Shown here: positions 13,269-40,184 of the stretch, one piece after another
Layout of the letters: each line of letters begins with the position of its first letter
Position numbering within the stretch: position 1 is the first letter of the stretch
Assembly (NCBI RefSeq): GCF_003018235.1
Contig: NZ_CP027437.1
DNA from: Escherichia coli
Lineage (GTDB): Bacteria > Pseudomonadota > Gammaproteobacteria > Enterobacterales > Enterobacteriaceae
Length of the DNA: 64,000 nt
Strand: one strand, 5' to 3'
Position numbers and translations under genes: made by a program
Notes under the pieces: model-generated
Told to the model about the DNA's origin: nothing
The model's input: only the letters and a program-made list of their open reading frames with translations
Databases searched by the model: none

Positions 13269-13303
13269 CGTGAACAGCCCTTCCACCTGAAATTAATTTT
13301 AAA

Positions 13304-13327
13304 AAGGGGCTAACAGCCCCTTTTTTG
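13304..13327 (+). terminator. Rho-independent hairpin upstream of rbfA
   Basis: Hairpin ggggctaacagcccc followed by tttttt. Confidence 0.55.
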
Positions 13328-34055: not shown

Positions 34056-34158
34056 TATCTCTCCGTGGCCCCGTTTGAAGAACCCATGGGCCGCCTGCTA
34101 AACAATCAGTCTTTTTAGTGAATACCGCCGTAAATCCTCGCTCCGTGCGGACTGACCA

Positions 34159-35115
34159 TCAGGGAGCTAGTTGCGTGGTATAGTTGGCAGCGACCCAACG
34201 ATAACCCTTGCTGTTGCTTTTAACATGCCCCAGGCCAGGGAATGAGATATGGGCAGCTGCCACCCAGTAACCACCCTGAGCCGCATGTTTTAATACTCGC
34301 TCACGGGTTTTTACCGCTTGCTGTTGATCCACATCGAAATGTATCGCCACGTGAGGATCCGGCATCTGCACTGCTTTGGCATGAATAATATCACCCCACA
34401 ACACTAGCGTCTGGCCTTCACTCTCCACTGTGTACATCACGCTTCCAGGTGTATGGCCGGCCGTTGAGGTGGCCGTAATGTCTGCAAATACCGTTGCCGG
34501 TGCGATAAAGGTTTTCAGCTGACCTGCGTTGATCACTGGGCGGATGGTCTGCTCCGATTCGACAAAGGTGTGCTTCTGACTCTCTTCTACTTTCGAGGCA
34601 TTCGCCGGATTAAGCCAGAAATCCGCATCTTTCTGCTCAACGAATACCTGGGCGTTAGGGAAAGCTGGTTTGCCCTGACGGGAGATGCCACCAGAGTGGT
34701 CGGCATGAATATGCGTCAGCAGCACGGCATCAATGGTTTCAGCCGGATAGCCAGCAGCTGCCAGGTTCTCAAGCAGTTGGCCTCCATTGTTGCCAAACAG
34801 ATCGCCCGCACCGGCATCAATCAACACGCGTTGCTGACCATTATCAATAACAAATGCATTGATTGAAGTCTCCGTATGGGGTGTCAGAGAATCCTTTGCC
34901 AGTTGCTGGCGCAGTTTATCGGCAGGAATGTGGGTGAGTAATTTATCTAGCGGAATTGTCACCGTGCCGTCGGAGACGGCGGTAATACGTAGTTTGCCCA
35001 ATATCATGCGGTAATAGCCCGGTGCTTGTGTATCAGGAGGGGGCACAGGTATAGGCGTTGCTAACGCATTTACGGAGAGTACCAGTGAGGTCACCAGAGT
35101 CAGCAAAAGTTTCAT
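34159..35115 (-). CDS. Secreted metallo-beta-lactamase-fold hydrolase (function unassigned)
   Basis: 318-aa ORF; N-terminal signal peptide MKLLLTLVTSLVLSVNALA; MBL zinc motif THIHADHSGG (HxHxDH); divergent from the LysR-type gene. Confidence 0.8.
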   Translation of the reverse strand: MKLLLTLVTSLVLSVNALATPIPVPPPDTQAPGYYRMILGKLRITAVSDGTVTIPLDKLLTHIPADKLRQQLAKDSLTPHTETSINAFVIDNGQQRVLIDAGAGDLFGNNGGQLLENLAAAGYPAETIDAVLLTHIHADHSGGISRQGKPAFPNAQVFVEQKDADFWLNPANASKVEESQKHTFVESEQTIRPVINAGQLKTFIAPATVFADITATSTAGHTPGSVMYTVESEGQTLVLWGDIIHAKAVQMPDPHVAIHFDVDQQQAVKTRERVLKHAAQGGYWVAAAHISFPGLGHVKSNSKGYRWVAANYTTQLAP

Positions 35116-35196
35116 TCTATCCTCGATAAGTTCTGTTATTACAGTACGGGCACCAGTATCCTTTTGCGGATAACATCATTCAAATTGATTAATATA

Positions 35197-36132
35197 ATGA
35201 ACTCTATCAGAGAAAATGATTTAAACCGGGTCGACCTCAACCTGCTAATCGTGTTCCTGGTGCTACATCGAGAGGGGGAGCGTTTCACGTGCAGCCAACA
35301 AGTTACACTTGGGGCAGCCAGCAGTCAGTGGCGCGCTGGCACGGCTGAGAGAAATGTTTAACGACCCGTTATTTGTGCGCACGGCAAAGGGGATGGCACC
35401 GACACCACGTGCACAAGATCTGGTTACGGCACTACTGCCGGTGATGGATCAAATGCAGCAGGTGATTTTTCAAAGGCCAGTTTTTACCCCAGAACAGGAT
35501 CAGCATACGTTTCGCCTGGGGATGAGTGACTGGGTCGAACGCTGGCTGATGCCTGGAATGATGGCAGATATAGCCCAAATGGCACCCGGGATTCGCTTAC
35601 AAGTCACGGCATCCGATCCTTTCCAGGATGGCGAAAAAGTGCAACAGGATAAGGTGGACGTAGCAATCTCCGTCGTGGAGCAGGTGCCCGCCGGAGTGGA
35701 ACGAGAAGTGATCACTCAAATGGGTTTTTGTACGATGTGGCATCCGCTCCAGTTATCTATCACTTCACCGTTAACCCTTGATGTATATACTGAAACCGAC
35801 CATCTTTTGGTCTCTTATCGCGGTGCAAGCAGTAGCTCTATCGATCTGATTTTGGCTGACTGCGGGCGTGGGAAGTGCGTTACGTCACGCCAAATTTCTC
35901 ATCGTTACCGTTGATGTTGAGACAGATACCGGCTTTAGCGACCGTACCGCAGGGGCTGGCAGAAGGTTGGGTAGCCGATTATGGGTTGCAATTTGCCGAT
36001 GTCCCACTCGAGGTTCCTGCTTTTACGCTCTCTCTACTCTGGAATAAGCGGCGTAATAATGATGAGGCGCTGCGCTGGTTACTAGAGAAATTACGTGCAC
36101 GAATGCAGGGCTGGGAGATGTTTTCAGAATGA
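35197..36132 (+). pseudogene. LysR-family transcriptional regulator interrupted by two frameshifts
   Basis: Three consecutive ORFs carry the pieces of one LysR protein: HTH in frame 1 (35164..35361), substrate-binding domain in frame 2 (35309..35914), C-terminus back in frame 1 (35875..36132); the first shift coincides with a G-run at 35311-35314. Confidence 0.65.
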
Positions 36133-36384
36133 GTTTGAAAACGTAACAATGTGAACAGAAAATAAGGGCTTTCTAAATTAAATAATTCCTGTTGAATATC
36201 ATCGTTAGCGACAACATCATCCACGACTACCAGCAGATTTGCACCGATGGTGGATGTTCAGGTCACGCCAACCTGGCCATGAACCAGAAGGTTATCAATA
36301 CGGGTTAAGAGAATATTGAGTAATGTCATAGTCTTATCTCCTGTTATCCTTGTCGCCTTTCATTTTTCGTTCTTTTGGCGGCAA

Positions 36385-36413
36385 TAAAAAAGGCAGATAA
36401 TTAATTATCTGCC
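36385..36413 (-). terminator. Rho-independent terminator of the PTS/C-S lyase operon
   Basis: Hairpin ggcagataattaattatctgcc followed by a T-run on the minus strand. Confidence 0.55.
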
Positions 36414-36420
36414 CTGTGGT

Positions 36421-37593
36421 TTATGCGATTTTTTGCATCCTTTCTAATGCTTGTTCAAGCCAGTATCTTTGGGTGCCGAAGTTTAAACGTAAGTAGTTTT
36501 CACCGTTTTGCACATAATGGCTGCCATCTTCAATAATGACTCCAGCGTTGCGGGCAAAATGATTGACCCATTCGGTCGCGGAGCGTCCACTTTCACTGAC
36601 ATCAATCCATGCCAGATATGACGATTCTGGTGTCATCATTTTCCATTCAGGAAAATGCGTCTTGAGGGCATCATTAAGCCAGTGGGAGTTATTGCGTAAA
36701 TAGATATTTAATGCATCCAGCCACGGTCTTGCATGCTGATAAGCCAGTGTAATTCCCCAAACGCCAAAAATATTCGGCGAAGTGATTGAGTTCATTTCCA
36801 GTCTCTGGCGAAAACGCTGCCTCAATCCTTTATTCGGAATGACTGAGTAAGATGTTTTCAGTCCCCCTAGGTTAAAGGCTTTATTTGGTGATGTTAGCAG
36901 GACCAGATTATCGTGATCGGCACATCCGGTAGCCAGGCAACTGACAAACTCGCCTTCCAGCAGGTGCTCGGCATGGACTTCATCCACGACCAGAATGACG
37001 CCGTAACGTTTACATAAGTCCGAAACCTGGCGAATCTCATCTGCCGTCCAGATTCGCCCGGAAGGGTTATGTGGAGAGCAGAAAAACCATAGTTTAGGTT
37101 TATGAAGTTTAAGCTGATCTTCAACCAGCGAAAAATCCAGTTGATAACGGTTATCCGCAATGCTTAACGGATTTGCCAGCACTTTAACCCCCTGGCGCTC
37201 TGTTGCCATGGCAAAAGGGTCATAGACTGGCGTATTCATCATGACGCTATCGCCCGGCTGGCAGAACGCCTGAACCATATAGTGCAGCGTTGAGACAGTA
37301 CCATAGGTTAGGGTGATCCAATTCTGCTCGATACTTACGTGGTGACGATCGCGCTGGAAGCCTATCACGGCCTCATAAAACTCATTAAAGGCGTATGTGT
37401 AGCCGAAAGTTCCGTGCTCAACAATCCGTTGAAAACCGTCAATTACCGCTGGTGGCGAAGTAAAATCCATATCAGCGATCCAAAGAGGGATAAAATCTTC
37501 TGCAACCGCACCGAAGCGTGAGCAGACAAACTGATGATCCCATTTGCGGCACTTGTCGCTTTTACGCTCGATAATTCTATCGAAATCGAACAT
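36421..37593 (-). CDS. PLP-dependent C-S lyase (MalY/PatB-family class I/II aminotransferase fold)
   Basis: 390-aa ORF resembling MalY/PatB cystathionine beta-lyases (..LLTSPNKAFNLGGLK.. PLP-lysine region); clearly diverged from K-12 MalY, so a paralogue. Confidence 0.85.
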   Translation of the reverse strand: MFDFDRIIERKSDKCRKWDHQFVCSRFGAVAEDFIPLWIADMDFTSPPAVIDGFQRIVEHGTFGYTYAFNEFYEAVIGFQRDRHHVSIEQNWITLTYGTVSTLHYMVQAFCQPGDSVMMNTPVYDPFAMATERQGVKVLANPLSIADNRYQLDFSLVEDQLKLHKPKLWFFCSPHNPSGRIWTADEIRQVSDLCKRYGVILVVDEVHAEHLLEGEFVSCLATGCADHDNLVLLTSPNKAFNLGGLKTSYSVIPNKGLRQRFRQRLEMNSITSPNIFGVWGITLAYQHARPWLDALNIYLRNNSHWLNDALKTHFPEWKMMTPESSYLAWIDVSESGRSATEWVNHFARNAGVIIEDGSHYVQNGENYLRLNFGTQRYWLEQALERMQKIA

Positions 37594-37605
37594 TTTTAAC
37601 TCCTG

Positions 37606-39177
37606 TTAAATTAAAGCTTCAAGGCCCGTTTTCACACTTTGAACTTGCGGGCCAATAATTACCTGCACACTGTGAGCATCCAGTACAACCACCGACAGGG
37701 CACCTGCATTCTTTAACGTGGCTTGATCCACTTTCGACATATCTTTCACCACCAAACGTAAACGAGTAATACAGTTATCCAGTGAATCAATATTTTCTTT
37801 TCCGCCAAGCGCACTCAAAATCACAGCATGATCATATTTAGATTTGCCTCGTGCTTTTGAATTTGCTGCAACAGCCTGTGCTGCATCCTCAGATGAGTCT
37901 TCACGGCCTGGGGTTTTAATATCATGCTTAAGGATGTACCAACGGAAAACAAAGAAATAAATAGCAAACCAAACAATACCCACCGGAAGTATTAAATACC
38001 ATTTAGTAGAAGTACCCTGCATGATACCAAATATTAATAAATCCAAAATCCCGCCATCAGTATTACCGATAGTCACGCCCAGGATTGCCATAACCATTAA
38101 GGCCAGACCGGACATGATAATATGGAATATATACAACGCAGGAGCAATAAAGAGGAATAAAAACTCAATTGGTTCAGAAATGCCAGTAACAACAGATACT
38201 AATACGCCTGAAAGCAGTAAGCCTTTAATTACAGGACGATTTTCTGGTTTGGCTGTACGATAAATTGCGTAAGCCACAGCAGGCAAACCAAACATAAAGG
38301 TTGGCATAAAGCCTTGGGATAAAAACGCAGTAACATGTGGGCTAAAGGGAAGACCGGCTTTTAATTCTGCATAGAAAATATTGAGTGCTCCGGCAACTTC
38401 ATGACCGTCGACAATTTCTGTACCGCCCGCAGGTGTGAAGCGAACCATTGCAAGCAAGATATGATGTAGCCCGAAAGGCTTAAGCAAAAGCACACCAACG
38501 CCATAAAGGAACGGGCCGAATACGCTGGTACTTTGAATAATGTGGCCAATACCAGCAATACCCATTGCAACATAGGTCCAGAGCAAAGGAATGGCCTGGC
38601 CTACTAATGATAATGTTAGCGAAGTGATGATGGGTACGAAGCGGATACCGCTAAAGAAGGCAAAGGCATCATGTAATACAGTATCCTGAAAACGTTCGTG
38701 GAGAAAATAAGTTATTACCCCGGCGATGATGCCACCTAAAACGCCCATCTCTAAGGTTTGAATACCTAATACTACAGATTGACCAACCTGCTTCATCGTG
38801 GCAGCATCGGCAAGTTGATGGGTAACAGTGAGATAATAATTAATACTCATGTTCATTAGCATATAGCCAACAAAACCTGAATATGCGCCTACTGCTTTAT
38901 TTCTCTTTGCCATTCCTAATGGAATTGCAATAGCAAACATAACAGGTAGATAAGTAAATGCAAAGCCACCTACCATTGCAATAAAGCCAAATGTAAGTTG
39001 GGTAAGCTCACCACCTAAAAAGGGGAAGTTATTAATTGTTGAGGGGCTGGTTACTGAACTACCTATACCTAACAGAAGTCCCATAAAAGCGAGTAATGAT
39101 ACTGGGAACATAAATGTTTTCCCTAAACTTTGGAAAAACTCCCAGACCCGTGACTTTATAGACTTTTCCTGTGTCAT
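37606..39177 (-). CDS. PTS glucose-family EIICB component (MalX/PtsG-like)
   Basis: 523-aa ORF; multi-pass EIIC domain plus C-terminal EIIB domain with phosphorylation-site motif NCITRLRL; co-directional with and 13 bp upstream of the C-S lyase gene. Confidence 0.85.
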   Translation of the reverse strand: MTQEKSIKSRVWEFFQSLGKTFMFPVSLLAFMGLLLGIGSSVTSPSTINNFPFLGGELTQLTFGFIAMVGGFAFTYLPVMFAIAIPLGMAKRNKAVGAYSGFVGYMLMNMSINYYLTVTHQLADAATMKQVGQSVVLGIQTLEMGVLGGIIAGVITYFLHERFQDTVLHDAFAFFSGIRFVPIITSLTLSLVGQAIPLLWTYVAMGIAGIGHIIQSTSVFGPFLYGVGVLLLKPFGLHHILLAMVRFTPAGGTEIVDGHEVAGALNIFYAELKAGLPFSPHVTAFLSQGFMPTFMFGLPAVAYAIYRTAKPENRPVIKGLLLSGVLVSVVTGISEPIEFLFLFIAPALYIFHIIMSGLALMVMAILGVTIGNTDGGILDLLIFGIMQGTSTKWYLILPVGIVWFAIYFFVFRWYILKHDIKTPGREDSSEDAAQAVAANSKARGKSKYDHAVILSALGGKENIDSLDNCITRLRLVVKDMSKVDQATLKNAGALSVVVLDAHSVQVIIGPQVQSVKTGLEALI

Positions 39178-39314
39178 TTAATAGACTCCTTGATTTTTAT
39201 AAGCATAGTTTCAAGGTCATGAAAAAGTAATCATGACCTTTTATATTTGTGAGGTAAGTTGTTTTTTATTGTCTGAATACAGCTGCTAAGAAACTGTTAT
39301 TCACATATTTTTAA

Positions 39315-40184
<870 letters not shown>

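Follow-up and report, generated by a model that had tools for sequence, protein, structure and literature searches.

A metallo-beta-lactamase-fold enzyme of the DHCH/MPH lactonase clade in Escherichia coli, predicted to be exported, and its divergent LysR-family partner gene

What would an exported hydrolase of the metallo-beta-lactamase (MBL) fold act upon in Escherichia coli, and what would control it when the regulator gene at its side is broken? The question is raised by a divergent gene pair within a stretch of 64,000 nucleotides, the whole of which is called here the window. A preliminary description of this DNA had proposed a secreted MBL-fold hydrolase, paired with a LysR gene in the way that is classic for inducible catabolic or detoxifying enzymes, and had considered beta-lactamases, lactonases and arylsulfatase-like hydrolases as its possible kin, the substrate being held to lie beyond the reach of the sequence. 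The explanation that we favour as a whole, and which we consider likely, is that of an exported lactonase of the dihydrocoumarin-hydrolase (DHCH)/MPH clade forming a module with a LysR-type regulator.

The hydrolase gene is intact and runs on the minus strand from 35115 down to 34159 (34159..35115), from ATG to stop, encoding 318 amino acids, as supported by the list of open reading frames, by Pfam, and by searches of PDB sequences and of folds. The protein matches the Pfam family Lactamase_B (PF00753) with an E-value of 1.9e-18 and 67.5 bits, against a gathering cutoff of 22.7, and it carries the HxHxDH motif (H135-I-H137-A-D139-H140, codons at 34696..34713, minus strand, read directly from the sequence), which places it in the MBL-fold superfamily. 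The decapeptide T-H-I-H-A-D-H-S-G-G that had been noticed before corresponds to residues 134-143, so that both the reading frame and the zinc motif of the preliminary description were confirmed.

The first 19 codons (35059..35115, minus strand) would encode a Sec-type signal peptide, MKLLLTLVTSLVLSVNALA, with a predicted cut after A-L-A. The N-terminus, MKLLLTLVTSLVLSVNALA|TPIPVPPP, shows a single basic residue (Lys), a hydrophobic core of 13-15 residues with Kyte-Doolittle 9-mer means of 1.5-2.4, and an A-L-A site of the A-x-A type, while inspection of this region found neither a Cys lipobox nor a twin arginine. The predicted cleavage coincides in the alignment with the start of mature methyl parathion hydrolase (MPH), and 16 homologs retain M1, K2 and a hydrophobic stretch. 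Inspection, hydropathy and this conservation all agree with the signal peptide proposed earlier, and suggest that the hydrolase is exported through Sec to the periplasm.

Databases contain the identical protein from 38 E. coli contigs, under the name “MBL fold metallo-hydrolase [Escherichia coli]”, and the database names are generic throughout the enterobacterial subgroup; the cluster at 90% identity includes one record named “methyl parathion hydrolase [Escherichia coli 2845650]”. Compared with other E. coli alleles, the hydrolase gene shows an omega of about 0.2, a value which rests on 15 substitutions only and which indicates, within that limit, past purifying selection.

The window itself is a colinear piece of E. 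coli chromosome (ftsH, argG, nusA-infB, pnp, deaD and lpoA-rsmI, followed by aga, gar, rnpB and tdc), with 95-99% identity to essentially all complete E. coli genomes and about 99.0-99.3% to the best of them. Into this common background is set an accessory island of 2,126 bp (34057..36182) that carries the hydrolase and LysR genes, with limits set by BLAST comparison to K-12 and SC418: the DNA homologous to that of other E. coli ends at 34056, one base past the rsmI stop, and the island is followed by an agaB remnant of 135 bp (36183-36317), by an insert with malX-like and malY-like genes (36318-39333), and by kbaY homology, which restarts from 39334 onward. Of 5,426 complete E. coli genomes, 63 (1.2%) carry the island, in every case on the chromosome; STEC O145:H28, ETEC O169:H41 and various isolates from animals and the environment are among them, and in three carriers the island simply sits between rsmI and agaI. 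Elsewhere, the slot beside rsmI is taken up by the yraHIJK fimbrial operon (K-12) or a RelE/ParE toxin-antitoxin pair, or is empty (SC418). Within the species, the hydrolase and LysR genes are an ordinary accessory gene pair.

Beyond the species, the pair is more than a local neighbourhood. The same divergent arrangement of hydrolase and LysR genes occurs in E. coli, Winslowiella, Enterobacter kobei, Serratia proteamaculans, Cedecea neteri and on a plasmid of Erwinia rhapontici, with LysR orthologs of 49-65% identity and a spacer of about 80-95 bp, whereas all other neighbours differ among these loci of six genera. The two genes are therefore a conserved two-gene module. The nearest homologs outside Escherichia (77-81% identity) reside on large plasmids of plant-isolated Erwinia rhapontici, Erwinia persicina and Pantoea agglomerans, which would fit a plant-associated origin of the module and plant-derived lactones as substrates.

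The divergent pairing with a LysR gene was thus well seen, and the importance given to it is borne out by its conservation across six genera; what did not hold is the integrity of the regulator, which in the window is spread over three frames. The LysR-family pseudogene lies on the plus strand at 35197..36132, as defined by comparison with intact alleles of 945 nt, and its open reading frames are broken into pieces at 35164-35361, 35309-35914 and 35875-36132. Its HTH_1 and LysR_substrate domains are both recognisable, but in separate frames, so that no intact frame in the window joins the two. The first lesion lengthens the G-run at 35274-35278 by one G, so that the frame is lost within the HTH and a stop is reached at 35359-35361; the second is a deletion of 4 bp (AAAA) between 35869 and 35870. 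In addition, a TGC>TGA change at 36130-36132 strips the last two codons. An L20F change, listed together with the LysR lesions, is seen in the window only. No curated equivalog was matched by this regulator, the best being BsrA with 194.8 bits, under its cutoff of 480.

An artefact of sequencing or assembly was rejected as the origin of these frameshifts on two grounds. The 43.5 kb of flanking DNA (about 42 genes) are clean when aligned to strain SC418, with seven indels that are all intergenic and none coding, and the same +G and -AAAA recur identically in four independent NCBI assemblies (contigs L016, L017, L019 and L020). The contigs compared were those that share both the identical hydrolase protein and the SNP haplotype of the window. 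On this haplotype, contig L018 and others similar to it have neither indel and encode an intact LysR protein of 312 amino acids, and contig L021 carries another lesion, a single A being missing from the A4 tract in which the -AAAA deletion lies. At least two independent events have therefore disabled LysR on one haplotype. An argument that the hydrolase was preferentially preserved during the decay of LysR, built on the contigs with identical protein, was discarded as circular, since these contigs had been selected on the hydrolase. In five annotated E. coli carriers from other lineages, the LysR gene is intact (945 nt, 314 amino acids) and so is the hydrolase gene. Against other E. coli alleles, LysR shows an omega of about 0.25 (17 substitutions), and taken together the two estimates indicate past purifying selection on both genes, followed by a recent loss of LysR.

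These lesions bring in the alternative that survives best, namely, that the module is decaying in this lineage and is functionless here, the regulator having been struck first and the hydrolase being intact merely for want of time. Three disruptive LysR events in one haplotype (the +G and -AAAA of the window type and the -A of L021), the L20F change private to the window, and an island that is rare and sits in a slot whose cargo varies by strain, all speak for it. On the other side, neither gene is broken in any of the five annotated carriers of other lineages or in the sister contigs of the L018 type, and the omega of the hydrolase points to selection in the past. On balance we regard such a decay as possible, and as somewhat unlikely. 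It should be kept in mind that this alternative concerns the present-day use of the module, and that it is compatible with the biochemical assignment of the enzyme.

Whether or not the module is in use here, its control region keeps the traces of a regulatory arrangement. The divergent spacer measures 81 bp (35116..35196). On its minus strand, it contains the SD sequence GAGGA of the hydrolase gene (35120-35124) and a putative -10 element, GATACT (35155-35160), suggested by a cross-genus alignment; a putative -35 element, TTGAAT (35178-35183), lies 17 nt away, and the two make 8 of 12 consensus matches. A promoter scan gave no sigma-70 promoter above threshold for the hydrolase, and its best match (35170-35198, 10/12) is on the plus strand, with a -10 that overlaps the LysR ATG.

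When the spacers are aligned across genera, two conserved blocks stand out and the remainder has diverged. The first one, ATCAATTTGAATGAT on the hydrolase strand (35175-35189), is a perfect ATC-N9-GAT dyad of the T-N11-A type, and is referred to as LysR-type box 1 (ATCATTCAAATTGAT, 35175..35189), which encloses the putative -35; the second is GGATACTG (CATAAT in Serratia). An extended motif, AATCRATTKGNRTGAT, occurs once and at the identical position in all nine loci, from five genera, that were compared. The bare ATC-N9-GAT pattern, found 26 times in the window where 15.7 would be expected, is common by chance and was dropped as operator evidence, only the cross-genus position and the synonymous constraint being counted. 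A second LysR-type box (ATCAGAGAAAATGAT, 35206..35220) lies 31 bp from the first, within codons 4-8 of LysR. The codons for the invariant residues I4, E6 and D8 are identical in six genera, whereas in the rest of the gene such identity is seen at just 4 of 96 comparable columns, which shows that the region of box 2 is constrained at the DNA level; a constraint on translation initiation could also be a cause of the synonymous conservation of codons 4-8.

These elements allow a model of control to be proposed. The LysR-type regulator would probably bind both ATC-N9-GAT dyads, which are separated by 31 bp, with box 1 overlapping the putative -35 of the hydrolase and box 2 lying in the first codons of the regulator itself. 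If transcription starts about 7 nt beyond the putative -10, the boxes would be centred near -34 and -65, a position that depends on the assumed -10 and that would correspond to the usual LysR geometry of an activation site and a recognition site. Such a two-box geometry would provide for inducer-dependent activation of the hydrolase together with autorepression of LysR, and the inducer may be the lactone or its ring-opened product. In orientation, in the spacer of about 81 bp, in the ATC-N9-GAT/T-N11-A dyads and in a distance of about three helical turns between sites, the module resembles canonical LysR divergent pairs; it differs from them in that the second site falls within codons 4-8 of the regulator itself, and in that the regulator is a pseudogene in the window. 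Because the regulator has been destroyed by two inherited frameshifts, the hydrolase is probably uninducible in this lineage, where it would be left with basal expression only; were LysR a repressor, its loss would instead raise the expression of the hydrolase. The logic of an inducible enzyme, which the divergent pairing had suggested from the start, thus holds for the relatives; in this genome it probably does so no longer.

The second half of the question, which concerns the substrate, can be approached through the position of the enzyme in its superfamily, for which a homology or structure search had been advised. A phmmer search against all PDB chains gave AncDHCH1/Anc1-MPH (5hif/6c2c), a reconstruction of the lactonase from which MPH descends, with an E-value of 2e-87, MPH (1p9e) with 4e-78, OPHC2 with 6e-72 and AbOPH (4xuk) with 1e-60, and after them two quorum-quenching lactonases, LrsL (7y7u) with 3e-46 and AidC with 6.5e-34; the B3 beta-lactamases AIM-1, L1 and SMB-1 reach just about 1e-5. 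Foldseek gave the same ranking for the structure predicted by AlphaFold2 with 16 homologs (pLDDT 76, pTM 0.80), with TM scores of about 0.75 for the MPH-type enzymes. The confidence of this model is lowest in residues 50-83 and 241-262 (pLDDT of about 46-56), which are the loops that carry the specificity residues. Full-length homology to MPH and AncDHCH1 is thus higher than to any other solved MBL-fold family, and the hydrolase is shown by sequence and predicted fold to belong to the DHCH/MPH lactonase clade. The curated NCBIfam models tell a complementary story, as the protein is related to several named families and is called a member of none. It is an uncharacterised enterobacterial branch of an already known clade. 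Two further resemblances were set aside: a match to the anti-Pycsar Apyc1 family of Pfam (21.3 bits, cutoff 50) was taken as generic MBL similarity and not as the sign of an anti-defence nuclease, and the arylsulfatase-like or alkylsulfatase option found no support, with no family or structure match for a hydrolase that is a single domain of 318 amino acids.

The active site is in keeping with this position. The metals of MPH are held by His147/His149/His234 and by Asp151/His152/His302, with Asp255 as a bridge (PMC7916636), and all seven ligands align to identical residues of the hydrolase, which are H135, H137 and H221, D139, H140 and H289, and the bridging D242. The seven are invariant in 16 enterobacterial homologs (64-97% identity to the hydrolase). 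An MBL-fold hydrolase with a full metal set is hence what the alignment displays, as had been anticipated, and of the two findings named beforehand as arguing against it (missing metal-binding residues, or clear orthology to a characterised non-hydrolytic MBL-fold protein) neither was made.

The history of this clade also supplies diagnostic positions for specificity. Five changes, l72R, the insertion S193, h258L, i271T and f273L, were shown by the Tokuriki group to be necessary and sufficient to turn the ancestral DHCH into MPH (PMC8222346), and extant DHCH enzymes hydrolyse dihydrocoumarin with a kcat/KM of at least 1e6 M-1 s-1 and organophosphates with less than 1e2 M-1 s-1 (bioRxiv 10.1101/504811). 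The hydrolase has L59, H245, I258 and F260, that is, the ancestral L72, H258, I271 and F273 states, all of them invariant in the 16 homologs. Its alignment to AncDHCH1 covers the full mature length with one single-residue gap, placed away from the residue-193 loop; this loop is gapless against AncDHCH1 and has a gap of one residue against MPH, as expected when the S193 insertion is absent. None of the five derived states of MPH is present, and the lactonase state is read at every diagnostic position of the sequence. For this reason, the prediction is a lactone hydrolase, and neither a beta-lactamase nor a hydrolase of organophosphates. The substrate, which had been thought to escape any sequence analysis, is in this way narrowed to a class by homology and specificity residues, and among the options put forward at the outset it is the lactonase that comes nearest, both by sequence and by fold and in the type of its specificity residues.

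Which lactones are hydrolysed is a finer matter. The enzyme probably acts on a dihydrocoumarin-type lactone, either aromatic or of plant origin, and acyl-homoserine lactones (AHLs) are possibly substrates as well, the 47% identity to the nearest characterised enzyme (AncDHCH1) leaving room for another preferred substrate. Beta-lactams are not expected to be hydrolysed, nor organophosphates at a useful rate, judging from the residues present, so that only a weak promiscuous activity on the latter would be anticipated. As for the chemistry, the ring is most likely opened when a hydroxide that bridges two divalent metals attacks the lactone carbonyl, the metals being held, as predicted by the alignment, by H135/H137/H221 and D139/H140/H289, with D242 as the bridge.

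The possibility of AHL hydrolysis leads to a different view of the role of the enzyme, that of a periplasmic AHL lactonase that would quench quorum sensing by degrading the signals of neighbouring bacteria. E. coli is not known to make AHLs, yet it senses them through SdiA. The best NCBIfam match of the hydrolase is indeed the AidB family of AHL lactonases (NF047979; 7e-60, full-length), LrsL and AidC are among the nearest structures, and the closest relatives come from plant-associated members of Erwinia and Pantoea, two genera in which signalling by AHLs is frequent. Against it, the AidB score of 202.6 bits is well under the cutoff of 360, the lactonase models AiiA, AttM and YtnP stay far below theirs (31.5, 27.3 and 67.6 bits against 375, 390 and 425), and the identity is higher to DHCH and MPH (47% and 42%) than to LrsL (34%) or AidC (25%). 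Moreover, the DHCH-type pocket residues are retained, and in none of the genera examined does the module have an AHL-related gene linked to it. AidB, LrsL and AidC (4zo2) share with the hydrolase a wider clade of dizinc lactonases of about 290-330 amino acids, and we consider quorum quenching an unlikely main role. The lactonase described in PMC8537011 belongs to the PLL family and not to the MBL fold.

Far less probable is the reading contained in the older E. coli record, that the hydrolase is a methyl parathion hydrolase acting on organophosphates. It can appeal to the full-length homology to MPH (4e-78) and to that one name within the 90% cluster, but L, H, I and F stand in place of R72, L258, T271 and L273, the S193 insertion is absent, and enzymes with these ancestral states remain below 1e2 M-1 s-1 on organophosphates (bioRxiv 10.1101/504811). 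With MPH (Pseudomonas sp. WBC-3, 1p9e) the hydrolase shares the fold, the binuclear site and, by prediction, the N-terminal export signal; what it lacks are the five derived changes that created efficient organophosphate hydrolysis. We give next to no weight to the idea of a subclass B3 metallo-beta-lactamase conferring inducible beta-lactam resistance, since the predicted export signal, the MBL fold, the HxHxDH motif and the weak similarity to AIM-1, L1 and SMB-1 (about 1e-5) are outweighed by scores of 48 bits against a cutoff of 240 in the B3 model (NF033105) and of 42 against 100 in the class B core model, by B3 structures that appear only from rank 32 on with TM scores of 0.41-0.44, and by the presence of the bridging aspartate (D242, equivalent to D255 of MPH), a feature of MBL-fold enzymes of the lactonase and glyoxalase types that B3 lactamases are not known to have. 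The beta-lactamase option raised at first does not stand.

A lactonase of the DHCH/MPH clade is thus the assignment with which the known systems are best compared. The closest relatives are AncDHCH1 and the DHCH enzymes such as JsDHCH, with which the hydrolase shares the seven ligands, the L/H/I/F specificity residues and the length of the loop at 193; 53% of the residues differ from AncDHCH1, the hydrolase belongs to an enterobacterial subgroup, and its gene is linked to a LysR regulator. PoOPH (4o98), OPHC2 (4le6) and AbOPH are members of the same clade, with 36-42% identity by structure alignment, but they are farther away than DHCH and MPH, and their hosts are Pseudomonas and Acinetobacter. 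PoOPH is natively a lactonase/esterase with a weak phosphotriesterase activity. In all this company, the features of the E. coli module that we would call mildly unusual are the operator in the first codons of the regulator and the recurrent loss of the latter, and nothing else.

A broader scenario can be drawn from these observations, which we offer as a speculation with the odds clearly against it. The module would have come from plasmids of plant-associated Erwiniaceae, and would allow minority lineages of E. coli, including the produce-associated STEC O145:H28, to destroy plant lactones or the AHL signals of their neighbours in the periplasm, under an operator placed in the first codons of LysR, the two or more independent losses of the regulator reflecting maybe a change of niche.

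More immediately, the assignment bears on how such enzymes are to be read in genomes. A hidden carbapenemase is very unlikely to lie behind this MBL-fold enzyme of E. coli, predicted to be exported, also where it is found in STEC O145:H28 and ETEC O169:H41, and the old label of “methyl parathion hydrolase” is misleading. MPH has become a textbook case of recent enzyme evolution, and its natural lactonase relatives are seen here to occur in enteric bacteria beside a dedicated regulator. This LysR-type regulator could, in turn, point to the native inducer and substrate of the enzyme, and one haplotype offers natural controls for the action of the regulator, in the form of LysR alleles that are intact, broken once or broken twice.

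The junction at 34056/34057, which separates rsmI from the aga genes, is a hotspot for cargo in E. coli. In K-12 this slot carries the yraHIJK fimbrial operon, in ECNB21-M121 a RelE/ParE toxin-antitoxin pair, and in 63 genomes the pair formed by the probably exported MBL-fold hydrolase and its divergent LysR regulator; in SC418 it is empty. The first 65 bp past rsmI (34057-34121) are common to the slots of the toxin-antitoxin type and those of the hydrolase type.

At 36183-36317 there is a 135-bp N-terminal remnant of agaB, with 96% identity to the K-12 gene, and this same fragment is labelled as an incomplete PTS IIB gene in the O145 and TB06052 records. The galactosamine PTS genes agaB (its C-terminal part), agaC, agaD and agaI are absent from the lineage of the window. 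A 3-kb insert of lower GC content (about 44-45%; 36318-39333) is flanked by this remnant and kbaY, and contains two genes on the minus strand, encoding a MalX-like PTS EIIBC protein (37606-39177) and a C-S lyase of the PLP-dependent MalY/PatB type (36421-37593). Through this position of the insert, the malX-like and malY-like genes lie directly downstream of agaS-kbaY, where they replace agaBCDI. The malY-like gene is closely followed, on its downstream side, by a palindrome at 36390-36415 (GGCAGATAATTAATTATCTGCC) that forms a hairpin of 9-11 pairs and gives terminator-like calls for both strands, with a T-run in the minus-strand call only. Elsewhere in the window, four small indels relative to SC418 are clustered in the infB-rbfA intergenic region (13270-13312), the sole indel-rich spot of a 43.5-kb alignment with that strain that is otherwise gap-free.

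Among the relatives of the hydrolase, the 90% cluster includes P0129 (EMW16696.1) and P0126 (EIH5003736.1). Of these two, one is of Shigella boydii origin and the other is annotated as “methyl parathion hydrolase [Escherichia coli 2845650]”, a name unsupported by the residues that separate lactonases from methyl parathion hydrolases.

Regarding the LysR pseudogene, the best promoter-like match of the region (ATAACA-17-TATAAT, 10/12) occurs at 35170-35198 on the plus strand, with its -10 element overlapping the presumed LysR ATG at 35197. At position 35254 the window alone has a T, in contrast to the C shared by all remaining contigs of its haplotype and by other E. coli; the resulting L20F replacement in the HTH region of the regulator is consistent with continued drift of a pseudogene. 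In the sister-strain contig L021 (GCA_974490345.1, 1482-2419), with an identical hydrolase allele, one A has been lost from the same A4 tract of LysR that is deleted in the window, which leaves fragments of 239 and 72 amino acids. This single-A loss is a second, independent inactivation of the LysR gene.
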